A stretch of DNA of 64,000 bases from Pyrinomonadaceae bacterium (GTDB lineage Bacteria; Acidobacteriota; Blastocatellia; Pyrinomonadales; Pyrinomonadaceae): assembly GCA_045807745.1 (NCBI GenBank), contig JBJMGT010000015.1, forward strand, positions 197,948 through 261,947, given 5' to 3'. Shown here piece after piece: positions 1-12,807 of the stretch. Every line of letters begins with the position of its first letter. The first letter of the stretch is position 1. Under the pieces are notes generated by a model. It saw nothing but the letters and a program-made list of their open reading frames with translations, was not told the origin of the DNA and ran no database searches. Both the position numbers and the translations under genes were made by a program.

Positions 1-1086
1 GTCAACGAGAGCGCAGCGCGGGCGACGCGTCTGGTCTCAGCGGAATCTGTGCGGGCGGCGGCGGCGCGTGTACTCGCCCGCCGCGCCAGCGTCCCGCAGC
101 CGTGGTTGGGCGCGCGCGGCGATGCGGTGGCCCTGACGCCGCTCAATCTATTCGTGGCGCGCGGCTGGCCCGAGCTTGAAGCGCGCGCGATGGTCAACCG
201 GCATCAGGGGGTGCTGCTCACGGATGTCGCGCCGGGTACGCCGGCCGCAGTCGCGGGCTTGCGCTCCGGCGATATCGTCGCGCGGATCAGCCAGCACGAA
301 GTCCGCAGCGTCGAAGATATGTCGCTGCTCTTGCAGGAACTGGGCAGCAACTCTGTGGCGCGCTTCACGGTGCTGCGCGCCGCCGGCCCGCCGCTCGATC
401 TCTCCGTGCGTTTAAGTGAAGCACAGAACCCCGCGTTGGAGACGGCACAGGCCGAAGCGCGCGCCGCCGAAGCCGAGATTAAATTGGCCGAGAGCGAGGC
501 CCGTCTGGCCGCAGCCGAGACGCGGCTCGCGGAGATCGAGACACGAACGGCACAGGTTGAAGTGCGCACGTGCGAAGCTGAACTACGAGTCGCCGCGACG
601 GACGCGCTCAAGGCCACAGCGCAAAAGCGTCTGCGCGAAGCGCAAGAGCACATGCTGTCTTTACAGACGCGCATGGCGCAAGCGCAAGAGCGCGCCAAAG
701 CTGCCCAACTGCACACGGTTGACGCACAACTGCGTCTCCACGCCGCCGAGGTACGCATGAAGCGGGCGAGCGACGAACACTTCGGCATGCCCGTGATGTG
801 GTTGCTGCCTTACGGTGTCAGAGCCGTCAGCCTGTGGCCGCCGGGCGCGGCCCCTGTGAGCGGGCGCGCGGGTCTGCTGGTCGTTTCGATCAAGCCGGAG
901 AGCAGGGCGGCGCAGGCAGGCTTGCGCCTCGGCGACATCATCGAGACGATCAACGGGCGACGGGCGCACGAACTTGGCGACTTGACGGAAGAGTCGCCCG
1001 CCGAGGCCGACTTCGTCAACCTGCTCGGCATACAGCGCGACGGGCAGAGCCTCACGCTCAAGCTAACGCGCCCGCCGGAGAAGTAA
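1..1086 (+). CDS. 5'-partial CDS encoding PDZ / coiled-coil / PDZ protein. It may be the C-terminal part of an HtrA-like protease.
   Basis: Frame 1 is open from nt 1 with no stop upstream of the annotated Met at 49. There are two PDZ-like segments (GLRSGDIVARI..., GLRLGDIIETINGRRA). Between them is a ~110 aa Ala/Glu/Arg-rich heptad-like stretch (AEAEIKLAESEARLAAAETRLAEIETR...). Confidence 0.55.
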   Translation, partial: VNESAARATRLVSAESVRAAAARVLARRASVPQPWLGARGDAVALTPLNLFVARGWPELEARAMVNRHQGVLLTDVAPGTPAAVAGLRSGDIVARISQHEVRSVEDMSLLLQELGSNSVARFTVLRAAGPPLDLSVRLSEAQNPALETAQAEARAAEAEIKLAESEARLAAAETRLAEIETRTAQVEVRTCEAELRVAATDALKATAQKRLREAQEHMLSLQTRMAQAQERAKAAQLHTVDAQLRLHAAEVRMKRASDEHFGMPVMWLLPYGVRAVSLWPPGAAPVSGRAGLLVVSIKPESRAAQAGLRLGDIIETINGRRAHELGDLTEESPAEADFVNLLGIQRDGQSLTLKLTRPPEK

Positions 1087-1280
1087 AGCAAGACTGCAAT
1101 AATCAATAACAATAGGTAATCGAAGCGCTGGCGTCGCACTCACGCCGTTAACTGTCTTCACAGTTTATCTCTTTCCGTTGTTGCCGTTATCGCCTCCCAT
1201 TCCTGAGCAGTCCGACTTGTGCTAAGCTAACCGGCGTTCAAATCGCTCGTGTCATTAAAAATCATCCAGCGCGTTAGGCA

Positions 1281-2654
1281 GTGAAGGGTCGGACTCTCAT
1301 GCTGCACGAAGCCGTCGCCTATTATCATCAACTGCTAGAAGATCAAGCACTGGCCGAAGCCTCGCGCGTGATGCTCGACGAGGGCTTCGAGCAAGCCAAG
1401 CTGATCTTTGGCGGTCGTCGTCTGTGTCCCTACCTGCGCCCGCATTTCGTCGCGGAGCAGGATTACGCTCGCGTGCGGCGCGTGTGCGAAACCGTCTGGG
1501 GCGCGATCCAGCAGGTGAAAGATGCTGCGGTTGAAGACCCGGCCCTGTTTGACGAGTTGGGACTGACAGACATTGAGCGCGAACTTGTTAGCATCGATCC
1601 CGGCTATCGCGAAGTCTCGCCCACCGCGCGGCTCGACTCGTTTTTGACGGACGATGCTTACAGCTTTGTCGAGTTGAACGGCGAGAGTCCTGCTGGGATA
1701 GCTTATGCGGACGCCGCCTTTGAAATCTTCTCGGCGCTGCCGGTCATGCAGCGCTTCGCCGAACGCTACGAAGTGCGCCCGCAGTTCGGTCGGCACCTGC
1801 TGCTCGAAGTGCTGCTGCGCGCCTATCAAGAGTTTCTCGGACACAAACCGGAACGCGCGCCGCACATCGCCATCGTCGATCTTAAGGGCTTGCCGACGCA
1901 GAAAGAGTTTGAGCTGTTCCGCGAATACTTCGAGCGCGAGGGCTATCCGGCGCAGGTGTGTGCGCCCGACGAGCTTGAGTTTGCGGATGGGCATTTGCGC
2001 GCCGGCGATTTTGAGATCGACATCGTTTACAAGCGCCTGCTCGTCAACGAGTACTTGCCGATCATGCAGGAACAGCCAGCGTTGTTGGACGCGTACCGCG
2101 CCCGCGCGATCTGCATGGTCAACAGCTTCCGTTCCAAGTTGATCCACAAGAAGGCGCTCTTCGCCGTGCTGACGGACGAGCGCCATGCGCATCTGTTTAG
2201 TGATGAGGAGCGCGCGGCCATACGCGCACATGTACCGTGGACGCGCAAAGTACGCGCCGAGCAGACGGAGCACTACGGCGAGCAGATCGATCTGTTGGAG
2301 TTCGCGACGAATAACCGCAATCGTTTGGTGTTGAAGCCTAACGATGATTACGGCGGGCATGGCATCTACATCGGTTGGAACACGGATGAGATCGCATGGA
2401 ACGAGGCGTTGCGCCACGCGCTCGCCAATGGTGATTATTTGTTACAGGAGCGCGTGTCGACCGCCCGCGAAATGTTTCCGGCGCTCAAAGATGACGGCTC
2501 GTTCGCGTTTGAGGAGCAGTTGGTCGATCTCGATCCGTTATTGTTCTACGGCAAGGTCGGTTCGGCCTTTACACGTCTGTCGGCCACTGAACTCGCTAAC
2601 GTAACGGCCGGTGGCGGCATGGTGCCCACGTTCATCATAAACAAAAAGAGTTGA
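1281..2654 (+). CDS. ATP-grasp-like amidoligase, resembling a circularly permuted ATP-grasp or glutathionylspermidine-synthase-like protein
   Basis: 457 aa ORF with good coding composition. The C-terminal half (RLVLKPNDDYGGHGIYIGW...YLLQERV) resembles the nucleotide-binding core of ATP-grasp/GspS-like ligases. It is first in a 4-gene plus-strand operon ending at a terminator at 4741-4779. The family assignment is from motif recognition only. Confidence 0.45.
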   Translation: MKGRTLMLHEAVAYYHQLLEDQALAEASRVMLDEGFEQAKLIFGGRRLCPYLRPHFVAEQDYARVRRVCETVWGAIQQVKDAAVEDPALFDELGLTDIERELVSIDPGYREVSPTARLDSFLTDDAYSFVELNGESPAGIAYADAAFEIFSALPVMQRFAERYEVRPQFGRHLLLEVLLRAYQEFLGHKPERAPHIAIVDLKGLPTQKEFELFREYFEREGYPAQVCAPDELEFADGHLRAGDFEIDIVYKRLLVNEYLPIMQEQPALLDAYRARAICMVNSFRSKLIHKKALFAVLTDERHAHLFSDEERAAIRAHVPWTRKVRAEQTEHYGEQIDLLEFATNNRNRLVLKPNDDYGGHGIYIGWNTDEIAWNEALRHALANGDYLLQERVSTAREMFPALKDDGSFAFEEQLVDLDPLLFYGKVGSAFTRLSATELANVTAGGGMVPTFIINKKS

Positions 2655-2672
2655 GCTAAGCGCCGCGCGCCG

Positions 2673-3041
2673 TTGGTTACTTTTAACTCGGAGAGTGCGC
2701 CCATGAGCAAAGACCCTGAAGTCGATGAATTGGCGTTTGCGGAGCGCCGGCAGCACGATCGCTCGCGCCTGATCGTGGACGTGTTCTTTAACGGCGCGGA
2801 CATAACCGGCGTGGCAAGTTCGAAAGACATCAGTCCGGGCGGGCTGTACATGAACACGCGGACGGAGTTGCCCGAAGGCGGCTTGCTGACCGTGCGCATC
2901 CCGTTTGCTGAAGGCGATGTGGTGGTCAACGCCGAAGTGGTCTATAGCAATCCGGGGCGCGGTGTCGGCGTGCGCTTTCAAGGGCTGGCGGAAAAAGATC
3001 GCGCCTTGATGGAACGCGCGCTCGCGCGGAGCGATGGATGA
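2673..3041 (+). CDS. PilZ-domain protein, a putative c-di-GMP receptor
   Basis: 122 aa. It has an RxxxR-like motif (RRQHDRSR) followed by DISPGG (D/NxSxxG), the two halves of the PilZ c-di-GMP binding signature. It lies 19 bp downstream of the previous gene. Confidence 0.6.
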   Translation: MVTFNSESAPMSKDPEVDELAFAERRQHDRSRLIVDVFFNGADITGVASSKDISPGGLYMNTRTELPEGGLLTVRIPFAEGDVVVNAEVVYSNPGRGVGVRFQGLAEKDRALMERALARSDG

Positions 3042-3580
3042 CGACTGAAGTTGCGGCGGACAAATTGAGTTGGCACAGTCTTCCGCCTGATTTGCGAACC
3101 GCGCTCGCGGGCCGGCTCGCCGGTCTCTGGGGCGCGCCGACGGACGAAGCCTCGTTCGATAGTCTCGCCGTAGACAAGCAACAAGCGTTGCTACTCCTCT
3201 TGCGGCGCATGCTGCAACTGGATTTATGGTTGGTGGTGCGCAAGGTAACGAACATCTATGGCGAGGGCGGCGTCGGGATGGCCTTTGACGCATGGCCTGT
3301 GGTCGTTGCCACGCTTACGCGCCGTCGAGACTTTACCCGCCGCTTCGCCAACCATCGCAACACGACCGGCGGTTTCTACGAACGCGGGCGCGGCACAGGT
3401 GTGTTACATTTTCTGTACGTGGACAAGCCGGGTGAGGCGCGCGCGTGGCAGGTGCATTTCGATCTCTACAGTCCTGTCTATTCGCCCCTGAGCGTGCTGC
3501 GCCATCTCCGGCACGAGTTTATCGCTAAGTACACGCCCGACTGGCGCGCCATCACAACTGCTTTGCGCGACACGGCCTAA
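3038..3580 (+). CDS. hypothetical protein (DUF) in the ligase operon
   Basis: 180 aa ORF. Its ATG overlaps the PilZ stop (ATGA), indicating translational coupling. No recognisable motif. Confidence 0.4.
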   Translation: MTTEVAADKLSWHSLPPDLRTALAGRLAGLWGAPTDEASFDSLAVDKQQALLLLLRRMLQLDLWLVVRKVTNIYGEGGVGMAFDAWPVVVATLTRRRDFTRRFANHRNTTGGFYERGRGTGVLHFLYVDKPGEARAWQVHFDLYSPVYSPLSVLRHLRHEFIAKYTPDWRAITTALRDTA

Positions 3581-3606
3581 ATTTTTCAGGCGCAGGTGAG
3601 AGAGTC

Positions 3607-4713
3607 ATGGAGCCATATACCCTCGGGATTGAAGAAGAATTCCAGATCGTCGATCCGCAGACACGCGAGCTGAAGTCGCACGTCTCGGAGATACTCGAAG
3701 AGGGCCGGATGATCCTCGGCGAGCAGGTCAAACCGGAGATGATCCAGGCGCAGATCGAGGTTGGCACGGGCATCTGCCGCGACATCGCAGAAGCGCGCAA
3801 GGACATCACGAACCTGCGCGCCATCGTCTCGTCGCTCGCGCGCAAGAATGGGCTGAACATCGTCGCGGCTTCGACTCATCCGATCTCACAGTGGCGCGAT
3901 CAGGTGATTTACGACGACCCGCATTACACGCTGCTCATCGAAGAGTTGCAGATGGTCGCGCGCTCGCTGCTCATCTTCGGGCTGCACGTACACGTCGGCA
4001 TCCCCGACCGCGAGCGGCAAATCCACATCATGAATGCGGCGCGCTACTTTCTGCCGCACGTGCTGGCGCTGACCACTTCGTCGCCCTTCTGGCTCGGCAT
4101 CAACTCGGGGCTGAAATCTTATCGCTCGGAAGTCTTCAAGAAGTTCCCGCGCACGGACATCCCCGACCACTTCGACTCCTACGTCTCGTTTCAACGCTAC
4201 ATCGATCTGCTGCTCAAAACGAACTCGATCAGCGGGCCGAAAAAAATCTGGTGGGACGTGCGCCCGCACCCGTTCTTCCCGACACTTGAATTCCGCGTCT
4301 GCGACATCCCGACGCGGGTGGACGACACGGTCGCCATCGCCGCGCTCTTTCAAGCCATCGTCTGCAAACTCGACCGGCTGATCGATAAGAATCTCGGCTT
4401 CCGCCTCTATCGCCGCATGTTGATTCAGGAGAACAAGTGGCGCGCGGTACGCTACGGGCTGGACGGGAAGATGCTCGACCTCGGCAAGCAGAAGGAAGTG
4501 CCCACAGTCGACCTCATCCGCGAGTTGCTCGACTTCGTGGACGACGTGCTCGACGATCTCGGCTCGCGCTCAGAGATTGAGCACATCCACACGATCTTGG
4601 CGCGCGGCACATCCGCCGATGAGCAGTTGCGCGTGTTCAAGGAGACGAACGACCTGAAAGCGGTGGTCGATAGACTGATCGAACTGACGGTCGAGCACGT
4701 GCCGTCGCTCTAA
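3607..4713 (+). CDS. ybdK: carboxylate-amine ligase of the YbdK / GCS2 family (glutamate-cysteine ligase family 2)
   Basis: The N-terminus LGIEEEFQIVD and overall length (368 aa) are characteristic of the YbdK/GCS2 family. It is last in the operon and followed by a strong terminator. Confidence 0.75.
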   Translation: MEPYTLGIEEEFQIVDPQTRELKSHVSEILEEGRMILGEQVKPEMIQAQIEVGTGICRDIAEARKDITNLRAIVSSLARKNGLNIVAASTHPISQWRDQVIYDDPHYTLLIEELQMVARSLLIFGLHVHVGIPDRERQIHIMNAARYFLPHVLALTTSSPFWLGINSGLKSYRSEVFKKFPRTDIPDHFDSYVSFQRYIDLLLKTNSISGPKKIWWDVRPHPFFPTLEFRVCDIPTRVDDTVAIAALFQAIVCKLDRLIDKNLGFRLYRRMLIQENKWRAVRYGLDGKMLDLGKQKEVPTVDLIRELLDFVDDVLDDLGSRSEIEHIHTILARGTSADEQLRVFKETNDLKAVVDRLIELTVEHVPSL

Positions 4714-4740
4714 TAGCTTAGCCGCTAACTACAGCATGAG

Positions 4741-4779
4741 CAAAAGCCCGGTCGATATGAACATCGACCGGGCTTTTCG
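4741..4779. terminator. bidirectional rho-independent terminator
   Basis: caaaa-GCCCGGTCGAT-atgaac-ATCGACCGGGC-ttttcg. An 11-bp perfect stem is flanked by an A-run and a T-run. It lies between the convergent YbdK-like gene (end 4713) and the DyP gene (end 4905). Confidence 0.65.
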
Positions 4780-4904
4780 TGCGCCCTAACAAGCGCATGC
4801 TGCTATCGGAGTTGAGCCGGGACAGTTCCGCCCACCGGCCCTCGCAACCATTGTAGCCGCCTATGGGTGGGGCGACTGCGGAGTTGGCCCTGCCGTCCCT
4901 ATTG

Positions 4905-6356
4905 CTACGTGCCGGCGATATGACGTAACGCCTTGATGCCGGGTAGGAAAAAGTAGGCCCCGCCTTTGACGGTGATAAAGCGGCGGAGATCATGGACCCG
5001 CGTGCGGAGCGGATCGGCTTGCACTGTCATGATCTCATCGCCCTTGTCCAAGTGCCCGATCAGCGGATCGACCTCGCCGTTTAAGCCGCCGAAGACCGGG
5101 TTGTTGATCCACGTCTGCTGGACGAATTCGAACTGGCGTTCGATGTCGCTGTTGAGACAGATAAAGTGCAAGCCGCGCGCGATGCCGTCATCGACCCGCG
5201 GGTCGGCGGCTCTGTGGCCGTAGGAGCGGCCACGGCGCAGAATTCGATGGCGGTTGGCCGAGGTGAGGGCGGTCTGCGGGTCTGGCCCGAGCGAGTCACG
5301 CGGGTTGGCGCGGCGAATGTGCGAACCGATGGGACAGGCAAAGCCACGCGCGTCCGTGTCGTTGTAGCCAAAGTCATCCGCATCACTGAGCGCGGGATCG
5401 TCGGAGGCGGGCGACAGTGTTAACGGTGCGCCGTTCGGCCAGCGGCCGACGAACTTCGCCGCCAGCCGACCACACGCGGCCTGGTCTAACTGCCCATCGA
5501 GGCGGCGTGTCGCTTCGTCAAGATAGTGATAAAAATCGGCGACGTGCTGGGCCAATTGGCGGAAGACGAGGTATGTGCCGTTGTGGCCCAAGTCGCGCAT
5601 AGCGGGTGCGCTGTTCGCTATGTCGGCAAGCGGGGGCGCGTCGGGCAGCAGATGTTGCGGGTCGCTCGCGGCCGGGACTTGCGGGCTGTCGGCTGGCTTG
5701 CCGTAGGCGTTAGAGTGCCCGAGCAGTACCTCGCCATCGTTGACCAGATTGCGCGCGGCCGCTTTGGCGGCCTGCGGACTGCCTGCGAGCGCGGGCTGGC
5801 CCATGCCATCGGCGAACCCGAAATGTTCGTGGCTGTCGGGCTGGCGTCCGGCTTCGAGGGCTAGGAATTCCACGACGCCGCTCGGCGTGAAATTCGCCCG
5901 TTGTCGGGCGCGCAGCGCATCGAGCGTCGTCTCGTCGGCAGCAAAGAGCAGCAGGAGCATGTCCGCGTCCTTGGCCTCTGCGCCGCCCCAGTCCCATTGG
6001 TCTGGCGCGTTGTCGTCGGCATCGCCGAGAATGCGCGAGCGGTGGGGCGTGGCCATGCCTTCGCGGAAGGGGCGCGAGAAGGTGGCGAGCGTTTCCGAGG
6101 TGAAGCCGAGCCGGGCCAGCCCGCGGTGCGTGAACGCCACGTTGAGCGACGTGCCTTCCTGCTTTCCTTCGGCCGTCGTGACCTCAGCCGCGAGTTGCGC
6201 CAGCCAACGGCGCGCGCCCGCCGCGTCGGCGACGCGCAGCAACAGGTAACACACGCAGGACAGATGGGCGTAGCCGCTCATGACGAGGCCCTGTATATCT
6301 TGTCGTTCTAGTTCCGCCACGATCTTGCACCTTTCGCTTAGAAGCGCCAGAGCCAC
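4905..6356 (-). CDS. DyP-type (dye-decolorizing) heme peroxidase
   Basis: N-terminal QDIQGLVMSGY matches the DyP N-terminal motif. EHFGFADGMGQP matches the GxxDG catalytic-Asp motif of DyPs. A proximal-His region HIRRANPRD is present. Its start overlaps the upstream gene by 19 nt. Confidence 0.7.
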   Translation of the reverse strand: MALALLSERCKIVAELERQDIQGLVMSGYAHLSCVCYLLLRVADAAGARRWLAQLAAEVTTAEGKQEGTSLNVAFTHRGLARLGFTSETLATFSRPFREGMATPHRSRILGDADDNAPDQWDWGGAEAKDADMLLLLFAADETTLDALRARQRANFTPSGVVEFLALEAGRQPDSHEHFGFADGMGQPALAGSPQAAKAAARNLVNDGEVLLGHSNAYGKPADSPQVPAASDPQHLLPDAPPLADIANSAPAMRDLGHNGTYLVFRQLAQHVADFYHYLDEATRRLDGQLDQAACGRLAAKFVGRWPNGAPLTLSPASDDPALSDADDFGYNDTDARGFACPIGSHIRRANPRDSLGPDPQTALTSANRHRILRRGRSYGHRAADPRVDDGIARGLHFICLNSDIERQFEFVQQTWINNPVFGGLNGEVDPLIGHLDKGDEIMTVQADPLRTRVHDLRRFITVKGGAYFFLPGIKALRHIAGT

Positions 6357-7600
6357 GCCCGCGTCGCGTTGTCGTCAAGCGACTTGTACAGGTCTTCGCG
6401 GATAGCGCTGTTGTTGTCTATCGTCTGGACGGTTAAGTGTTGATAGGCACTGTACCAGACGTTCGTGTAAGTCTGCTTGGCGCGCGCTTCGGCTTTGAAA
6501 CGCGCCCCGTCGCGCGCGCCTTCGCGCACGAGAAAACTCGCCTTGGGGAAATCGACCGTGTTGCTCCAGATGGCGGTTAGCCCCGTGCTCGCCTTGTCGA
6601 TGAAGTCGTCGAGGTAGTTCTCCCAACTGCCATCGAAGTTGCTGAGAAAGAGCAAGCGCCGGTCGTTGTCGATCAGCGCCCAGTGGGCGAAGTGGATGCT
6701 GGGAATGCCGCTGAGCTTGCCATCGTTGATGGTGCGGGCGATCAGGTTCACGAGCCAGAGCACGCCCCTGAGCGTCTTGCGCCGGAATGCGCCGGGTTTA
6801 ACCACCGTAATGCTCGCCATGTGGTTCTGGACGATGTGCGTGCGATCCTCGCGTTCGACTAACTCCTGCACGTGCGTTATGTCGCCGCGGTCGGCCGGCC
6901 CGGGGTCGCGTTGCTCCTTCCAGCGGAGCACGATCAGCCAGATGATGCCGACCGGAATTAGCATTGGCAGCAGCAGGAACGCGACGACGGCCGCAAGCGC
7001 GACCTTAAGCCGGGGCAGGTAATACTCCGCTGGGGTCTGGCGCGGCGGCACGCTCGCTGCCCATGCATGCGCCGGTTGGCCGCGTACGAAGGCTTGCACT
7101 TTTTGCCTCAGCGCGCCGGCCGGCACGCCGCCCGGCCCTTGCCGCACGACGCCGTCAAGGAACTGCTCGATGTTATCGCGGAGACCATCCTCCTGTTCAA
7201 TGCGCGCGTAGCTCCGCCCTACGTTGCCGACGTGGTAGGCATTCGGCCGGACGACGTGTGCGCGTAGGTAAGCGAGCACCTGCGCGCGGTCGTCTGCGCT
7301 CCGCGCCGGGTAGTCACGACAGCAACTATAGATGCGATGTAGCCCAGCGGCAGCGTGCTGATACAGGTCGGTCAGATATTCGTCGAGCGTGCCGTCGAAG
7401 TTATGCTCGAATATGAGATAGGGGCCGTAGAGGTCATCCTCATGTAGCACCAGGCTCGCGAAGTGGAGAAACTTGAAGGCGGGGAAAGGCAGGTGCGGGT
7501 TGTCGAGCAAGTTCTTCGCGATCTCCTTTAACAACGCATCAAGCTCCGCGACCCGGCTCGGCTCTACTTTGGTGATGAACGTGAGTACTGTGTGCTTCAT
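6338..7600 (-). CDS. hypothetical membrane-anchored protein with an internally duplicated domain
   Basis: 420 aa. It has a central TM helix (LKVALAAVVAFLLLPMLIPVGIIWLIVL). The N- and C-halves share a motif block (LHFASLVL...YLIFEHNFDGTLDEYLTDL versus IHFAHWALIDND..LLFLSNFDGSWENYLDDFIDK). Its start ATG overlaps the P450 stop (ATGA). Confidence 0.5.
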   Translation of the reverse strand: MKHTVLTFITKVEPSRVAELDALLKEIAKNLLDNPHLPFPAFKFLHFASLVLHEDDLYGPYLIFEHNFDGTLDEYLTDLYQHAAAGLHRIYSCCRDYPARSADDRAQVLAYLRAHVVRPNAYHVGNVGRSYARIEQEDGLRDNIEQFLDGVVRQGPGGVPAGALRQKVQAFVRGQPAHAWAASVPPRQTPAEYYLPRLKVALAAVVAFLLLPMLIPVGIIWLIVLRWKEQRDPGPADRGDITHVQELVEREDRTHIVQNHMASITVVKPGAFRRKTLRGVLWLVNLIARTINDGKLSGIPSIHFAHWALIDNDRRLLFLSNFDGSWENYLDDFIDKASTGLTAIWSNTVDFPKASFLVREGARDGARFKAEARAKQTYTNVWYSAYQHLTVQTIDNNSAIREDLYKSLDDNATRAWLWRF

Positions 7601-9657
7601 CCGTGCCGCCCTCCGGCGGTGCTATCACCGTGATCAAAGGCGAGAATCAGACGCGCAGGAAACGGGCCGTCGTATAAGACGCGTCCGGCGCGCCCATCCG
7701 CGCGGCGTAGGTTGGGCAGACGCAACAGCGCGGCTACCAGTTCGGGAATCTGCACGCCGTTGATGGCCAGCCCGAAGCAGCGGTGCAGGCCGTAACCGAA
7801 GTGCAGGTAGTCCGTTTCTCGGTCGACCCGAAACTCTTTGGGTCGGGGAAACGCCTCTGGATCGAACATGGCCGAGAGTGTGCCCACGTAGACGGACGCG
7901 CCGGCCGGGATGCGCTTGGCCCGCGTCGTTCCAGCCGCAAGTTCCGTCGCCCGCCCGCAGTAGCGCGCCTGCACAGGGTGATGCGGATTAAAGCGCACCG
8001 CCTCGTAGGCGTAACGCTTGACCACCTCCACTTCGCCGGCCATGGCTGCGGCCCGCGCCCCGGCCAGCGCCTCGGGGCGGCGCAGCAATTCATCTATGGC
8101 GAGCGTGACGAACTTGGACGTGGTGTCAACCGCGCCGACGATTAGCCCGCCGAGATTGCGCCGCACCGCGTTGTCGTCGAGCCAAGGGTGCGCTTCATCC
8201 TGAAGCGCGAGCAGCCGACCCAGCACGTCGTCAGGCTGAGCGGGTGCGCCGCGCTGCGCCTTGCGCCGCGCGATCACGCCGTCCATGTGTTGCCGCAATT
8301 CCGCGCTGGCGCGCAGGGCGTCGCGGTGTACGAGCGGGTCGGCGGCCGGGTTGGCGAAAATATCGTGAAAGACATCGCGCATCCAACGTAGCATCGTCGG
8401 CTCGTCGGGCGCGGGGATGCCGAAGTACGAGCCGACCAGACGCATCGCTACGACGCGCGCGAAGCCGTTCACGACATTGATCCGGCCATACGGGCGGGCC
8501 GCCTCGGCGAGTTGGGCCGCGCTGTGCGCGACGAAGTTGCGTATCCGGTCAAGATCGTCGCGGCGCACCGCGAGCCGCAGCGCCGCTTCCTCGCGATCGT
8601 ACTGAGGCGAGCGATCCATGCCGAGGATGAAGGGGCCGTCGATGGCGTCGATGCGCGCCTCATTAACTTCGGCAATAGTAAAGTCCGTGTCGCGCGTCAG
8701 CACTTCAAGCACGTCTGGATGACGGGTTACGACCGCGCGCTTGCCGACGATGAGGATCGGGGCGACGCGGCGCAGCAATGTGAAAAGTGGTCGCAACAAG
8801 CGCGGGCTAACCAGACAGTTGAACAACTTATCCTTAAACGTGTCGCCGGGCTGATGCGCACCGGTCGCGACCAAATCAACGGCCGGGCGCGGCCGCTGGT
8901 CACGGTAGACGCGCAGGATGAACTGACCCGCCGGCCGCGCGCGCAGTTGCTCAATGTCGGCCCGCATCGGTGGCGGCAGATCATCGAGCGTCGGCATCGG
9001 GCCGCCGTACTCAGGCGGCAGTACGGCCGGCGCGGCCAAGGCCGCAAAGGCCAGATCGGCCGCCGTGAATTGATCGCCCGTTAGAAAACGTCGGCCGTCG
9101 GCCAAGCGCGCTTCCACTTGAGCAAAAATGGTATCCATAACGGCGCGCTGCTGCGGGATGGTGTCGGGCTTAAGCTCAAGGTTGCGCTGCATCGCCCAGA
9201 CTAATAACGGAAAGACAACCGGCACGGCCAAGCGCTCGAAGCGCGGCGCGCGCTCAGTCCAGACGCGAATGGTGGCCGCGCGGTTGTGCGGGAGCATATA
9301 CGCATACGCCCATGCCCGGACTGCAACGCCGAACTTATCGAAAAAGAGATCGAAGAGGGCCAAGGTGTCCGCGTGTGCGCCGGGGTCTGTGGGGAAGAGT
9401 CGCTGCTGTTCGGGGGCGCGTAGTTCGTAATAGTCTACGACCTGCCGCGCGTCGGTGAGGGCCGCATCCGCAGTGTCCAGCACCGGCACGACGCCGCTGC
9501 CGCCGTGTCTGCGCCCCGCAAGGACGTGAAAGACCGGCGCGTGACATTCTTCGTAGTACGGGATGCGGAGCCGATCCAGCAGCCAGCGCGCCATCTCGCA
9601 GTATGGACTGACGGGGATCGAGATCATGTGCGGATGGAATGAGGAGGTGATAGACAA
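7597..9657 (-). CDS. glutathione S-transferase-like / cytochrome P450 fusion protein
   Basis: The N-terminal ~230 aa has a GST thioredoxin-like start (IPVSPYCEMARWLLDRLRIPYYE) and a GST C-terminal helical region. The C-terminal ~430 aa has P450 signatures: I-helix GAVDTTS, ExxR (EAVRF), and heme-Cys loop HFGYGLHRCFG. Confidence 0.75.
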   Translation of the reverse strand: MSITSSFHPHMISIPVSPYCEMARWLLDRLRIPYYEECHAPVFHVLAGRRHGGSGVVPVLDTADAALTDARQVVDYYELRAPEQQRLFPTDPGAHADTLALFDLFFDKFGVAVRAWAYAYMLPHNRAATIRVWTERAPRFERLAVPVVFPLLVWAMQRNLELKPDTIPQQRAVMDTIFAQVEARLADGRRFLTGDQFTAADLAFAALAAPAVLPPEYGGPMPTLDDLPPPMRADIEQLRARPAGQFILRVYRDQRPRPAVDLVATGAHQPGDTFKDKLFNCLVSPRLLRPLFTLLRRVAPILIVGKRAVVTRHPDVLEVLTRDTDFTIAEVNEARIDAIDGPFILGMDRSPQYDREEAALRLAVRRDDLDRIRNFVAHSAAQLAEAARPYGRINVVNGFARVVAMRLVGSYFGIPAPDEPTMLRWMRDVFHDIFANPAADPLVHRDALRASAELRQHMDGVIARRKAQRGAPAQPDDVLGRLLALQDEAHPWLDDNAVRRNLGGLIVGAVDTTSKFVTLAIDELLRRPEALAGARAAAMAGEVEVVKRYAYEAVRFNPHHPVQARYCGRATELAAGTTRAKRIPAGASVYVGTLSAMFDPEAFPRPKEFRVDRETDYLHFGYGLHRCFGLAINGVQIPELVAALLRLPNLRRADGRAGRVLYDGPFPARLILAFDHGDSTAGGRHG

Positions 9658-10115
9658 AGCAGACTCCGAATTTACTCGCCGAGAGAGAGCTTATGAGGCT
9701 GACGGGAAAGCACGCCTAAGCGCCGCTTCGCTCAATGGCTGAGTCGTTGCCGAATTGACCATACCTAAAGTATGGGGCTGGCAGGCAGTTGCCCGCTAGG
9801 ACTGATAATCGCGGTCAGGAAATCCCAGGCTCGGTTGAGAAGCCGCTTTCGCAAAACCGGAATCTGCCGTGTATCTTCACGCATCCATAATGATCGAGCA
9901 GTGAAGAGTAGTAAGGCCGCCACATAGTGACAAGGCTAAGCGGTCAAAACAGAGCCTGACATTATGCCTGTTCGGGCTGACTGTCAATAACTTTTGGCCC
10001 CGGCCGACGCCCGGCATCAGCGGCGCGCACGGATGATTGAAGATAGCAACAACGCTGATTTGCGCGTCCGCTGCATGCCGTCGTTGGGCCGCGCCTAGGG
10101 ATTAACCACGCGATC

Positions 10116-10307
10116 CTAAGACCTCTTGGGCAGCTTAGGAACGCAGCCGAGTCCTTTGCACACGGTGCAAACGCCTTTGACGCGCCGCCCCATCGGGTTC
10201 ATGTGACGGGGGCCTTCAGAACCGCAAGTAGCACAGTCGCAATCAGTGCTGCCTCCGCAGTGTGGGCATATATCATACCCATCTGGAATCGACACGGAAC
10301 GACCCAT
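10116..10307 (-). CDS. small Cys-rich zinc-ribbon protein with DnaJ-type CxxCxGxG-like repeats
   Basis: 63 aa with CPHCGGS, CDCATCGSEG and CTVCKGLGC motifs. A perfect SD AAAGGAGGAG lies 7 nt upstream of the ATG. It sits in a lower-GC islet. Confidence 0.55.
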   Translation of the reverse strand: MGRSVSIPDGYDICPHCGGSTDCDCATCGSEGPRHMNPMGRRVKGVCTVCKGLGCVPKLPKRS

Positions 10308-10465
10308 TTCTCTCCTCCTTTGTTCGTCGAATTATGTTCGGCCCAACGCTCGAATTGAGCGGGCGGGAAGCATTGCAGCAAGCATCCGAGTCTCGCGATG
10401 AAGGACAGGCTGATTCCGCTCCGCTCGAATGAGTTGTTCGGCTGCCCGTTGCTTGAGCAAGGCCG

Positions 10466-11062
10466 TTATCGCATCTTTCGCAGTCCCTTAGCCTGCCATT
10501 CAGGTAAGCCAACGCGGCCGCCTCCGTTGAACTTGACCTTGAAACCATCAGCGCGCTGCTCTAGCATCCGGTACTCAAAAGGCATGTTTACCCATTTGAG
10601 CTCGGGTGGCGTCTCGTAAGGGATTGGAAAGTACACGTCAACGGTGGACTCGTCAACGTTGGCATTGACCTGAATGGTTCCAGTCTGGACGAGCATGTCA
10701 TTTGGAACAGACTGTTGCCAAGCAGGGCTCAACGTGATCAGTAACCCGACGATTGACGCAGTGCTTCCCCAGACGCCGAACTTCTCGAACGGACCCAGAC
10801 GTTGATACTTTCGATAGAAGTCCAAGACATCATCCCGGCGTCGCCAGTTCGACCACGCTCCGATCGCAATACCTAAAGGTGCGATTACCCCAAAGACAAT
10901 GACCGCCGAGCCAACAATACTTGAGGTCAGGAGCCACAGCAGAAGGATCAATGCCCGCCAAGGCCCTTGAAAGATACTAAAGAATGCCCAGACCGCCAGA
11001 GCGCCGATGGTACATCCAATGACCTCTTTCGACAGAAGGCGATGCCACTCAAATCGATTCAT
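10466..11062 (-). CDS. hypothetical integral membrane protein
   Basis: Start re-placed at the internal Met MNRFEW, which is preceded by SD TTCGGAGGCGC. It has 3-4 predicted TM helices and a soluble C-terminal domain. The ORF-track N-terminal extension covers the palindromic repeats and is rejected. Confidence 0.45.
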   Translation of the reverse strand: MNRFEWHRLLSKEVIGCTIGALAVWAFFSIFQGPWRALILLLWLLTSSIVGSAVIVFGVIAPLGIAIGAWSNWRRRDDVLDFYRKYQRLGPFEKFGVWGSTASIVGLLITLSPAWQQSVPNDMLVQTGTIQVNANVDESTVDVYFPIPYETPPELKWVNMPFEYRMLEQRADGFKVKFNGGGRVGLPEWQAKGLRKMR

Positions 11063-11142
11063 GCGCCTCCGAATGGGAGAAAATTGGCCAAATGAACGCT
11101 CATCGATATGCTCACTTTCGTGAAGAGGCGGCCGAACTACGG

Positions 11143-11229
11143 TATATGCGGAACAGCTTCCGCATAACACCGGAATTTGGGTGTTATACGGAACAGCTTC
11201 CGCATAATACCGTTATAGGCGGAAGCCGG
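11143..11229. promoter_or_regulatory. 2.5 direct copies (40-bp period) of a palindromic site TATGCGGAA-cagc-TTCCGCATA; putative operator array
   Basis: tatatgcggaacagcttccgcataacac at 11143-11170 and gttatacggaacagcttccgcataatac at 11183-11210, plus a partial ataggcggaagc at 11213-11224. They lie 81-167 bp upstream of the membrane-protein start and downstream of the GATase gene. Confidence 0.5.
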
Positions 11230-11275: not shown

Positions 11276-12238
11276 TCACCCTTTGACTTCCCCGGCGTGC
11301 TTGAGAGATTCGCGCAGGAAGTTCTCGAAGATGATGCGCCCGTCGCGCGACTCGTTTGGATGTGCCCAGCGTGTGGCGCGCGTGCGGTCGTAGTCCTCGA
11401 AAGATTTTTCGAGATGGAATTGCACGGTGTAGATGAGTTGCCCGTCCGTCCGTTTGACCATCATCTGGTTGCGACAGAAGTAGGCGGTCGCGAGTAGCTT
11501 GAAGCCTTCGGGCACGCGGTCGAGTTCGAGGCCGTGGTTCTGCCAGACACGCAGGATGCGCGCCTCGGTTGTGTAATCCTGCCAGAGACCTGTCTGCGGA
11601 TCGTGTATGCCGGCGAAGATCGGGTCGTCCGGGTCGGTGATGCGGATGAAGCGATATTGATACTCGAAAGGCCGCTGCGCACGGTTCTCGTGTTGCTCAC
11701 GTTTGTCGAGCGTCTGGATGCGCGCCCCAAAGCTTAAGCCGATAAGTTGATGACCGCCGCAAATGCCGAGCACGGGCGTGCGCGTTGTGGTAATGAACTC
11801 GGCGAACTTGGCGAGCAGCGCCGGGCTGTAGAGATCAAAGTCGCTGAGCGTACCGCTCAAGACGATAGCATCGGGGCGGAAAGCGTAGGCCGCTGCGGCG
11901 ACCTCCGATAGATGAACTGTCTCCGTCACGGGCTGGCGCACGAGGCGCGAGATGTTATTGCGTATGTTGTTGAGGGCCATGCCGGCGATCTTGCGCTCGC
12001 GTTGCAGGTTAGTGTCCGTCCGCCGGCCCCATTCCGCCAATGCGACTTCAGAGAGATCGCTTCGGTCGCGCAAGAGATCGTCCACGACAAGGACGCGCGC
12101 CGTGTCAATCCGCTGCTCAATCGGTTCAAAGCGACAGTAAGAGCGCTGATTGAAAGGGAACGGTAGCGGTTCAGCTTGATCGATGGGGGTGCGCGGTGTT
12201 TGTTCGAGTTCCTGCATCGTTCTCTTAAAAGTCCACAA
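11276..12238 (-). CDS. class I glutamine amidotransferase-like protein (GATase1 / peptidase C26-like) with an N-terminal extension
   Basis: GICGGHQLIG matches the GxCxGxQ nucleophile elbow. VQFHLE matches the His-Glu triad motif. 320 aa. Confidence 0.7.
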   Translation of the reverse strand: MWTFKRTMQELEQTPRTPIDQAEPLPFPFNQRSYCRFEPIEQRIDTARVLVVDDLLRDRSDLSEVALAEWGRRTDTNLQRERKIAGMALNNIRNNISRLVRQPVTETVHLSEVAAAAYAFRPDAIVLSGTLSDFDLYSPALLAKFAEFITTTRTPVLGICGGHQLIGLSFGARIQTLDKREQHENRAQRPFEYQYRFIRITDPDDPIFAGIHDPQTGLWQDYTTEARILRVWQNHGLELDRVPEGFKLLATAYFCRNQMMVKRTDGQLIYTVQFHLEKSFEDYDRTRATRWAHPNESRDGRIIFENFLRESLKHAGEVKG

Positions 12239-12249
12239 TAGTTAGATGT

Positions 12250-12807
12250 TCACGCCCGGCGCAGCCGTTGTTTCGTATTCTGGTTGAACTGCGGCACGGC
12301 CGCGCCTGCGCCTGCCTCTTCGACCTCGCCCCGCGCCGCGCCGATCAGCGTGCGCCGCAAACGCGCACGCAATGCTGCTGTGCGCTCGCTTGCCCGGTGC
12401 TCTATGAGCAATAACATGTGCTGCCATGAAGATTCAAGCTCGTCCGCAAGCGGGGACGTTCGTGTAATGTCGTATGGGACGGCGACGGCGGCCACACCCA
12501 AGCGCGCGAAGACAGCCAGATAGCGCGCCGTCGCCAGATCGGGACACGACAGGCGCTTACGTCCGACCTTCAACTCCACGCCCAACAACGTGTGCTGCAC
12601 GGACACTTCCGTCCCGGCCTTCGCCGCCGGCAGCGCGTGCGAGCGCGTGCGCATGGGCATGATTTTTTCCCGATAAATGCGCGGCAGCCAAACGTCTGCC
12701 AACTCATCCTTGATCTGGGCCGCCAACTCGTCGGCGCTGCCCAGTCGCGCCTTTTTCTGCGCCACCGCCGGTTGCACCGCAACTGTCTGCCAAGCACACA
12801 TAAGCAC
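12250..12807 (-). CDS. hypothetical protein
   Basis: 185 aa ORF between the nuoN 3' hairpin and the GATase gene. Composition is plausible but it has no recognisable motif. Its annotated start overlaps the hairpin element. Confidence 0.3.
   Translation of the reverse strand: MLMCAWQTVAVQPAVAQKKARLGSADELAAQIKDELADVWLPRIYREKIMPMRTRSHALPAAKAGTEVSVQHTLLGVELKVGRKRLSCPDLATARYLAVFARLGVAAVAVPYDITRTSPLADELESSWQHMLLLIEHRASERTAALRARLRRTLIGAARGEVEEAGAGAAVPQFNQNTKQRLRRA

Follow-up and report, generated by a model that had tools for sequence, protein, structure and literature searches.

Gene neighbourhoods that combine a type-2 permuted ATP-grasp enzyme with a GCS2-like COOH-NH2 ligase were reportedly predicted by comparative genomics in the 2009 analysis of Iyer, Abhiman, Burroughs and Aravind (Mol Biosyst), and the description of Pfam family PF14403, which we take to follow that work, presumably already pairs the two. 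The role predicted for these neighbourhoods, in which the same two ligase families are adjacent and are joined in other lineages by peptidase- or amidohydrolase-like accessory proteins, is small-peptide synthesis. The locus described here differs in that its Blastocatellia form adds two genes between the ligase genes, one for a PilZ-domain protein and one for an orphan protein of 180 residues; to our knowledge, neither is part of the 2009 description. A CP_ATPgrasp_1/Alpha-E/transglutaminase-like peptide-modification system, with which structure 3n6x is presumably associated, is said to come from the same analysis. An earlier, sequence-only reading of this DNA had set the operon apart from that system, and rightly so: no Alpha-E or transglutaminase domain was found in the operon or its neighbours, either in the window (the whole 64,000-nucleotide stretch that was analysed) or at three related loci (L001, L002 and L171), and the partner in the window is a GCS2 ligase instead.

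Other pathways share parts of this logic. Synthesis of glutathione, glutathionylspermidine and trypanothione likewise uses a glutamine-synthetase-fold ligase (GshA/GCS) followed by a permuted ATP-grasp ligase (glutathione synthetase, GspS or TryS), and gene 1 of the window folds like GspS, TryS and eukaryotic glutathione synthetase, but the window proteins reach no curated cut-off for glutamate-cysteine ligase or glutathione synthetase. The fungal E-64 pathway combines an ATP-grasp enzyme, Cp1B, with a second amide-bond synthetase, but it is eukaryotic, its second enzyme is from a family other than GCS2, and a second-messenger component is absent. In the RimK-RimA-RimB system of Pseudomonas, an ATP-grasp amide ligase using glutamate is also tied to c-di-GMP and is encoded with small accessory proteins (PMC10092738); RimK, however, is a classical, non-permuted ATP-grasp enzyme that is itself the c-di-GMP receptor and has ribosomal protein S6 as its target, whereas the window has a separate, presumed PilZ sensor, a permuted fold and a second ligase, GCS2, with no indication of a protein substrate. 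That c-di-GMP can control a peptide ligase of the ATP-grasp type has a precedent in its stimulation of RimK (PMC10092738).

The operon, from a Pyrinomonadaceae bacterium (Acidobacteriota, class Blastocatellia), is self-contained, with four plus-strand genes forming one unit that runs from a conserved motif resembling a promoter to a strong terminator. The pairing of its ligases had already been predicted from genomes; what is new is the two inserted genes. We interpret it as a ligase cassette that would make a small peptide or amide without a non-ribosomal peptide synthetase (NRPS), here probably under the control of c-di-GMP, and assign this reading a probability of roughly 60%. Its core is two ATP-dependent amide-bond ligases of unrelated fold, gene 1 being likened to glutathionylspermidine synthetase and eukaryotic glutathione synthetase and gene 4 resembling glutamine synthetase in fold. 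Going by the characterised enzymes of the two superfamilies, each would convert a carboxylate to an acyl-phosphate and then join it to an amine. The two may act in succession: a gamma-glutamyl-type dipeptide or amide would come from GCS2, and gene 1 would then lengthen it by one more amino acid or amine to give a small, cytoplasmic, peptide-like metabolite. Amide-ligase cassettes of this NRPS-free kind have been little explored as sources of small peptides, cofactors and protective metabolites.

Gene 1 (1299..2654, plus strand) encodes a circularly permuted ATP-grasp ligase, type-2 or GspS-like, of 451 residues. Its start is likely the ATG at 1299 rather than the GTG at 1281, because NCBI protein P0121 (451 aa) is 100% identical across 1299-2654, homologues begin aligning at residue 7, and the gene is called as 451 aa in L171, a 96%-identical relative. 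Against PF14403 (CP_ATPgrasp_2) it scored 21.3 bits (E = 1.4e-4), under the gathering threshold of 32 and at the edge of the family that marks the neighbourhoods predicted in 2009. Its orthologues (77–81% identity) have a precomputed PF14403 match, and the cut-off is reached by four of eight family representatives at 30–48% identity (47, 37.9, 37.9 and 33.3 bits); membership of gene 1 itself would be transitive only. The fold confirms the ATP-grasp assignment that Pfam leaves below threshold and that the sequence-only reading had ventured as ATP-grasp- or GspS-like: the topology is that of permuted ATP-grasp enzymes, and solved members are matched over most of the chain, best of all YgiC, TryS and GspS, with eukaryotic glutathione synthetase also strong. 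The amidase domain of GspS is absent. Three motifs, FVELNGESPAG (~residues 123–133), LKPNDDYGGHG (~345–355) and QERV (~383–386), occur in permuted order, with ExN ahead of the K...GG loop and QE, and the E, N, K, G and Q of ExN, KPxxxYGG and QE are invariant or nearly so in alignments at 26–44% identity; we take the roles of these motifs to be those generally known for ATP-grasp enzymes. Relatives of gene 1 are labelled ‘circularly permuted type 2 ATP-grasp protein’ by NCBI.

For gene 4 (3607..4713, plus strand; 368 aa), curated cut-offs, solved structures and an active-site motif agree with its initial naming as a YbdK/GCS2 carboxylate-amine ligase. It scored 203.7 bits against Pfam GCS2 (cut-off 21), 532 against the NCBIfam carboxylate-amine ligase model NF010039 (cut-off 371) and 301 against TIGR02050 (cut-off 176); the nearest solved structures are those of YbdK, 1r8g and 1tt4 (E ~5e-48); and GhExE, the active-site signature of GCS2-type ligases (PMC2588565), is present as G7-I-E-E-E11. 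Judging from the motifs of both enzymes and the NF010039 score of gene 4, genes 1 and 4 both look catalytically competent. Our literature search found no experimental characterisation of any protein from the families of genes 1 and 3 or from the GCS2 subfamily of gene 4, and none of the four proteins matched a PADLOC anti-phage defence model at E <= 0.1.

Relatives of gene 1 at 41–59% identity lie immediately 5' of a GCS2 gene in Vicinamibacteria and in unnamed metagenome lineages (L083, L087, L088, L090, L094, L095, L099, L147 and L153), and others lie within 2–3.6 kb of GCS2 in other arrangements (L089, L093, L165, L107, L142, L168 and L170). That the two genes keep turning up together in varying layouts speaks for a functional link, and ligases from different superfamilies that are encoded together have been described as catalysing successive ligations (PMC4431377). 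Neither PilZ nor the orphan was seen among the distant loci examined that hold gene 1 and GCS2. Extra partners recur there, namely an M29-like peptidase, a CH...HHPE protein and a classical ATP-grasp protein similar to D-Ala-D-Ala ligase (E = 1e-6), and a GATase-like protein also accompanies the pair in other lineages; partners of this sort would be expected in modules that make and turn over small peptides. Relatives of gene 1 at 61–75% identity also occur without GCS2 within 6 kb, next to genes for carboxyltransferase, EVE, DinB or YceI proteins, so adjacency is frequent rather than obligatory and the enzymes could act independently.

The pair could instead make glutathione, or a housekeeping thiol resembling it, by a non-canonical route, a proposal that we consider unlikely; GCS2 would be the gamma-glutamylcysteine ligase and gene 1 the second-step synthetase, analogous to the eukaryotic glutathione synthetase. 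Gene 4 does score 376 bits against NF010043, ‘glutamate--cysteine ligase’, and its closest structural relative, YbdK, shows gamma-glutamyl:cysteine ligase activity (PMC2588565), but the NF010043 cut-off of 409 is not reached, the other NCBIfam glutamate--cysteine ligase equivalogs are missed by more, and the protein lands in the generic ‘carboxylate-amine ligase’ model. Gene 1 likewise reaches only 14 bits against a glutathione synthetase model, and YgiC, TryS and GspS match it better. In favour of the proposal, both ligases are conserved like core metabolism (68–92% identity) and, like gshA and gshB, are adjacent at some loci and unlinked at others; a GST-domain protein is also encoded 3 kb away, although GST-like domains are no proof of glutathione use. 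It would also suit the proposal that a genome survey recovered no canonical gshA-B from Acidobacteria (PMC6282198). Against it, bacillithiol or N-methyl-bacillithiol is predicted for Acidobacteria including Chloracidobacterium (PMC6282198), a genus that carries the operon (L054 and L078). The extra ligases and peptidases of other lineages would also be superfluous for glutathione synthesis. A bolder version, which we regard as improbable, is that GCS2 and the permuted ATP-grasp enzyme are the overlooked route by which Acidobacteria make a gamma-glutamyl thiol resembling glutathione, or some other essential small peptide, that its output is set directly by c-di-GMP through PilZ in Blastocatellia, and that the orphan is an enzyme of new fold acting on the same metabolite. 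A product that proved to be a thiol or a peptide akin to an osmolyte would close a gap in what is understood of acidobacterial physiology; were it neither, the operon would still be a clean addition to a computationally predicted ligase system.

Within the small-peptide cassette that we favour, the first inserted gene would supply regulation. Gene 2 (2703..3041, plus strand) encodes a stand-alone protein of 112 residues, and its start is most likely the ATG at 2703, with TTG 2673 as the alternative, because GGAG lies 9 nt upstream and a 112-aa gene is called in L171. That it is a PilZ-domain protein, as first supposed, is borne out by 47.3 bits against Pfam PF07238 (cut-off 22.5) and by both c-di-GMP motifs, RQHDR (RxxxR) and DISPGG (DxSxxG), which are intact and separated by 22 residues. 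Both are also intact in 66 of 75 orthologues, the other nine having DIGxGG, with Gly replacing the motif Ser. Second-messenger control is probable, judging by these motifs and the position of the gene only: the PilZ protein may bind to the orphan or to either ligase, and so tune synthesis to the level of c-di-GMP. The usual outputs of c-di-GMP are motility, adhesion and exopolysaccharide; here PilZ would connect it with small-molecule biosynthesis. It is an accessory part and not an obligatory one, since an otherwise identical operon lacks PilZ in 6 of 80 species.

The second inserted gene, gene 3 (3038..3580, plus strand; ‘DUF180’), had been called a DUF, and comparison with profiles and structures leaves it without a known family: neither sequence nor structure gave a significant match in Pfam, NCBIfam or the PDB. 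The predicted model is confident (pLDDT 91), and the protein is very strongly conserved, with an invariant set of His, Asp and Glu residues, offering a handle for study of a protein with no relative in the PDB. It may be an accessory enzyme or an adaptor, possibly metal-dependent, and could take the role of the peptidase- or amidohydrolase-like partners found beside the same ligase pair elsewhere.

Very unlikely, in our view, is that the ligases add amino acids or a peptide to the side chain or C-terminus of a protein in the manner of RimK or PafA, with the orphan as substrate or adaptor and PilZ as regulator. In its favour, no family is closer to the Pup ligase PafA than GCS2 (PMC2588565), RimK-type ATP-grasp enzymes modify proteins and respond to c-di-GMP (PMC10092738), and the strongly conserved orphan always directly precedes GCS2 (80/80 loci). 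The termini of the orphan, however, are its least conserved parts, and its C-terminus lacks a conserved Glu, Gln or Gly like those of tag or acceptor tails; the operon contains no small Pup-like ORF; and the ligase pair is widespread without the orphan, in the company of M29-like aminopeptidase and GATase-like partners that better fit small-peptide metabolism.

Conservation was counted over loci from 80 species-level genomes, with gene 3 as the anchor, and the four-gene order was retained in essentially all of these genomes, in keeping with the co-conservation anticipated from sequence. Neither outcome that the sequence-only reading had named as counting against it, a gene 1 unlike any ATP-grasp/GspS profile or a lack of co-conservation, was seen. 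Gene 1 lies upstream at 77 of the 80 loci (two of the other three end at a contig edge), and PilZ is present at 74. The orphan is missing from at least six metagenome loci at which gene 1, PilZ and GCS2 are all retained; as PilZ and the orphan are each absent from some relatives, they are accessory inserts, neither essential to the ligase pair. Across these species, identity is 68–87% for gene 1 and 77–92% for gene 4, against 26–49% for the neighbouring anti-sigma protein, a sign that the ligases are under strong purifying selection; two competent-looking enzymes under such constraint in abundant soil bacteria are a further handle on the system. All loci bearing PilZ or the orphan belong to the one class, Blastocatellia, where the operon is part of a syntenic 15-kb region (ECF sigma - anti-sigma - PDZ - operon - GATase - Mrp antiporter), and the conserved order of the two inserts could partly mirror shared descent. 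That the genes are neighbours by descent only, with PilZ and the orphan acting on unrelated targets, would suit this synteny, the confinement to one class and the many loci at which gene 1 is solitary, but it is highly improbable given the operon-like junctions, the start-stop overlap kept in relatives, the single promoter motif and single terminator, the insertions of several kilobases that fall just outside the unit and rarely inside it (in the window, 6.5 kb separate GCS2 from the GATase gene), and a link between gene 1 and GCS2 that is repeated in distant lineages in varied arrangements.

The sequence-only reading had described four tightly spaced plus-strand genes ending at a strong terminator, and ORFs, junctions and hairpin all support this, with the start codons of genes 1 and 2 revised. 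Its ATGA overlap between genes 2 and 3 (−4 bp, 3038–3041), which couples the orphan translationally to PilZ and recurs in L001, L002 and L171, and its 26-bp gap between genes 3 and 4 were exact; its 19-bp gap between genes 1 and 2 was not, the distance being 48 bp from ATG 2703 or 18 bp from TTG 2673. A putative sigma-70-type promoter with an extended -10 element (1200..1228, plus strand), proposed from conservation, lies ~70 nt upstream of the gene 1 ATG and comprises TTCCTG (1200–1205), a 17-nt spacer, TGc (1220–1222) and TAAGCT (1223–1228). A generic promoter scan made no call at 1200–1228. The block CTTGTGCTAAGCTAAC is unchanged between the window and seven close relatives, and more distant Blastocatellia keep it as TGnTAnnnT while the remaining intergenic region diverges. 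At the other end, an intrinsic terminator hairpin (4744..4777, plus strand) reads GCCCGGTCGAT-ATGAAC-ATCGACCGGGC, then TTTT, and forms an 11-bp G+C-rich stem with a 6-nt loop, an A-run on its 5' side and a T-run on its 3' side. Its minimum free energy is −27.7 kcal/mol (z = −6.2), and none of 200 shuffled sequences folded equally well; a generic terminator scan did not call it, because its T-run is of four T only. The hairpin could serve both directions, including a convergent gene that ends at 4905.

The stable element of this operon is the pair of ligases encoded by gene 1, a permuted ATP-grasp protein, and gene 4, a GCS2 protein; the PilZ gene (gene 2) and the 180-aa orphan (gene 3) are inserts between them, confined to Blastocatellia and each dispensable separately. 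The sequence-only reading had described four plus-strand genes within 1281-4779, and an open reading frame listing bore out this unit, though not the first codons assigned to genes 1 and 2. Gene 1 likely begins at ATG 1299 (1299-2654, 451 aa) rather than at the listed GTG 1281, because a database 'hypothetical protein' of 451 aa from a Pyrinomonadaceae bacterium MAG (P0121) is 100% identical across 1299-2654, homologue alignments begin at residue 7 as counted from the GTG, and 451 aa were also called in a 96%-identical relative, against whose contig the start codons were compared. Gene 2 most likely starts at ATG 2703, with GGAG 9 nt upstream, rather than at TTG 2673 where the listing opens; its product has 112 aa, as called in the same relative. 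The remaining junctions are as first described: gene 3 (3038-3580) shares an ATGA start–stop overlap with gene 2, and the gap to gene 4 is exactly 26 bp. The strong terminator proposed after gene 4 is a hairpin with an 11-bp G+C-rich stem and a trailing TTTT (4744-4777; −27.7 kcal/mol, z = −6.2 relative to shuffles).

The window and seven close relatives share an identical block, CTTGTGCTAAGCTAAC, ahead of gene 1; more distant relatives keep it as TGnTAnnnT. From this block and the TTCCTG 17 nt upstream we infer a promoter of the sigma-70 type at 1200-1228, its −10 element extended. A generic promoter and terminator scan called neither feature, and the assignments come from conservation among relatives for the promoter and from folding against shuffles for the terminator. 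A riboswitch or other known RNA was rejected for the leader and operon (900-5000), where an Rfam and riboswitch search returned a single chance-level match (E = 0.99).

The ATP-grasp-like character proposed for gene 1 was upheld by family and motif evidence, though not by direct Pfam matches, which are sub-threshold for both CP_ATPgrasp_2 (21.3 bits, cut-off 32) and CP_ATPgrasp_1 (15 bits). The family profile matches the CP_ATPgrasp_1 structure 3n6x (E = 1.2e-4), some family members at 30–40% identity pass the PF14403 cut-off, some are named 'circularly permuted type 2 ATP-grasp protein' by NCBI, and the ExN motif lies N-terminal to KP...GG and QE, as a permuted topology predicts. Judged from these sequence features together, gene 1 is therefore classed as a circularly permuted ATP-grasp ligase, marginal to PF14403. 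Its family comprises many members, with 3828 clusters at 50% identity (E ≤ 1e-3), and a literature search on PF14403, CP_ATPgrasp_2 and RoseRS_2616 found nothing relevant. One 3684-aa protein from a representative library (P0362) matches gene 1 in five separate stretches at 29% identity, which points to a giant protein of several domains in which the permuted ATP-grasp module is repeated.

The YbdK/GCS2 identity proposed for gene 4 is unambiguous at the profile level (Pfam GCS2, 203.7 bits; NCBIfam NF010039, 532 bits, cut-off 371), and its nearest solved relatives are YbdK structures. The GhExE signature (described in PMC2588565) is present as G7-I-E-E-E11, and gene 4 falls below all curated glutamate-cysteine ligase cut-offs. 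Gene 2 is likewise the PilZ-domain protein first supposed (47.3 bits), with RQHDR and DISPGG at canonical spacing. Both motifs are retained in 66 of 75 PilZ orthologues; the other nine (L004, L005, L006, L054, L057, L058, L062, L069 and L070, where L numbers denote compared loci from other genomes and metagenomes) carry DIGxGG, with Gly for the Ser of DxSxxG and RxxxR kept, and may differ in c-di-GMP affinity. Three of these loci, L004, L005 and L006, come from species that rank with the closest relatives of the window; the window PilZ itself retains the Ser.

Searches of Pfam, NCBIfam and PADLOC returned nothing for gene 3, and a Pfam domain was found in none of its 1384 homologues; a role in anti-phage defence was rejected, as PADLOC gave no match for any of the four proteins. 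Its structure model is confident (pLDDT 91.2, pTM 0.87). Across 40 sequences, with identity down to 41%, thirteen polar residues are invariant (D36, D46, K47, R57, N72, Y74, E115, R118, H124, H140, D142, H156 and E160), and several of them alternate along adjacent strands or are one helical turn apart in the model, which suggests that they make up a single functional surface that might bind a metal or a substrate.

Conservation of the four genes together in other genomes, as the sequence-only reading expected, was confirmed among the best 80 of 167 loci matching the gene 3 family in a scan of one genome per GTDB species. These 80 belong to Blastocatellia/Pyrinomonadaceae, apart from one with the label Gemmatimonadota and a few MAGs whose title says only 'bacterium'. 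All 80 loci have GCS2 after gene 3, 77 have gene 1 before it (contig ends cut two of the three exceptions) and 74 have PilZ; in the PilZ-less loci (L027, L049, L063, L072, L079 and L081) gene 1 abuts gene 3. Identity to the window proteins is 68–87% for gene 1 and 77–92% for gene 4, and the upstream anti-sigma-like protein reaches only 26–49%, relative to its copy in L001.

Synteny within one class is weak evidence alone, and we therefore anchored a second survey, of 88 loci, on distant gene 1 family members; it included a metagenome scan with a narrow alignment of the family. A GCS2 gene lies within the DNA examined in 36 of the 88. It is directly downstream of gene 1 relatives of 41–59% identity in the Vicinamibacteria locus L083 and, in other lineages, in L087, L088, L090, L094, L095, L099, L147 and L153; it lies 2–3.4 kb downstream in L089, L093 and L165, and about 2 kb upstream in L107, L142, L168 and L170. 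Blastocatellia-like loci include gene 1–PilZ–GCS2 without the orphan (L106, L110, L112, L129, L146 and L148), and gene 1 and GCS2 are directly joined in L108; at least 12 of the 88 loci have the full four-gene form. GCS2 is absent from 19 loci in which the DNA examined extends 3 kb or more downstream. Among such loci is a whole sub-class 61–67% identical to the window gene 1 (L113, L117, L121, L125, L131 and others), which adjoins an acyl-CoA carboxyltransferase gene amid EVE and DinB-family genes and could represent either a paralogue of different function or the same enzyme no longer linked to GCS2.

Other partners recur in the distant lineages, namely an M29-like peptidase, a classical ATP-grasp protein and a protein of about 310 aa with a CH...HHPE pattern; an IQCH/PGM1-type ATP-grasp appears in one case. 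The classical ATP-grasp family (317–350 aa, unannotated, all Pfam scores below cut-off, D-Ala-D-Ala ligase profile match at E = 1e-6) stands immediately upstream of gene 1 relatives (L088:5035-5994, L090:5051-6004, L168:4892-5926 and L147:4921-5973). In many Blastocatellia loci it is also encoded about 4–5 kb ahead of gene 1, on the other strand (for example L002:656-1603, minus strand; 57–65% identity), and the pathway may include it as a third ligase. The orphan showed no relationship in hhalign to this family or to the M29-like group, and was rejected as a diverged copy of either (probability 0.2%). The CH...HHPE family (L083:8570-9529, L087:8481-9647 and 11 further loci; 306–388 aa, no Pfam match) follows gene 1 or GCS2 within a Vicinamibacteria-like clade. 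Its invariant C119-H120 and H233-H234-P235-E236 are reminiscent of class-I amidotransferases, and its single, marginal match among PDB sequences is a GMP-synthase GATase domain (E = 0.46), so that it is possibly amidotransferase-like.

The ligase pairing itself is already known from computation: the Pfam description of PF14403, said to follow Iyer and colleagues (2009), reportedly notes association with genes for a GCS2-like ligase and a peptidase or amidohydrolase, and predicts small-peptide synthesis. In the assembly of peptide-derived metabolites, linked ligases of different superfamilies are known to carry out one ligation after another (PMC4431377). From this precedent and that description, we consider it reasonably probable (roughly 60%) that the operon is a two-step amide-ligase cassette that would need no NRPS and would have gained a c-di-GMP-sensing subunit, PilZ, and an accessory protein, the orphan. 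RimK provides a precedent for an ATP-grasp peptide ligase regulated by c-di-GMP (PMC10092738). The placement of a PilZ receptor together with a conserved orphan between such ligases appears to be undescribed, as literature searches returned no account of it.

That the pair instead forms a non-canonical glutathione-like thiol pathway seems unlikely. The fold resembles glutathione synthetases, the ligases are strongly conserved, and gshA-B are reported absent from Acidobacteria (PMC6282198). In addition, an unusual GST-P450 fusion of 686 aa encoded nearby (7597-9657, minus strand; N-terminal GST_N_3 and GST_C_2, C-terminal cytochrome P450) hints that the organism has such a thiol. However, equivalog scores are sub-threshold, and bacillithiol pathways are predicted in the same class. 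A protein-modifying role for the ligases is improbable, as the termini of the orphan are variable and the ligase pair is widespread without it. Inherited synteny alone is also improbable, since the gene junctions are operon-like and the ligase pair turns up again in other lineages.

The cassette sits in a wider syntenic region. In Blastocatellia, genes for an ECF sigma factor, an anti-sigma-like protein (about 272 aa in relatives) and a PDZ protein always lie, in that order, directly upstream of the ligase operon. The window start cuts the PDZ gene, leaving the C-terminal part (49-1086, plus strand); the whole protein is about 657 aa, and an Ala/Glu/Arg-rich, repetitive, coiled-coil-like stretch separates its two PDZ domains. 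Past the operon, on the opposite strand, follow a class-I glutamine amidotransferase/peptidase C26-like gene (11276-12238), a small gene of unknown type (12250-12807) and Mrp/Nuo-type antiporter genes; the first two occur within 7 kb downstream in 71 and 60, respectively, of 83 loci (the window and 82 others). The amidotransferase, being gamma-glutamyl-hydrolase-like, could be functionally linked to the adjoining gamma-glutamyl-type ligase cassette; its equation with the 319-aa Vicinamibacteria member of the CH...HHPE family was rejected (BLASTP E = 0.056, without meaningful alignment). GCS2 and the amidotransferase gene are close together in relatives, and are separated in the window by an insertion of about 6.5 kb (4905-11170). 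Its four minus-strand genes, closely spaced or overlapping, encode a DyP-like peroxidase (4905-6356; weak DyP_N and Dyp_perox_C matches), an overlapping 420-aa protein with a predicted membrane segment and no Pfam match (6338-7600), the GST-P450 fusion and a 234-aa protein of unknown type (10466-11170).
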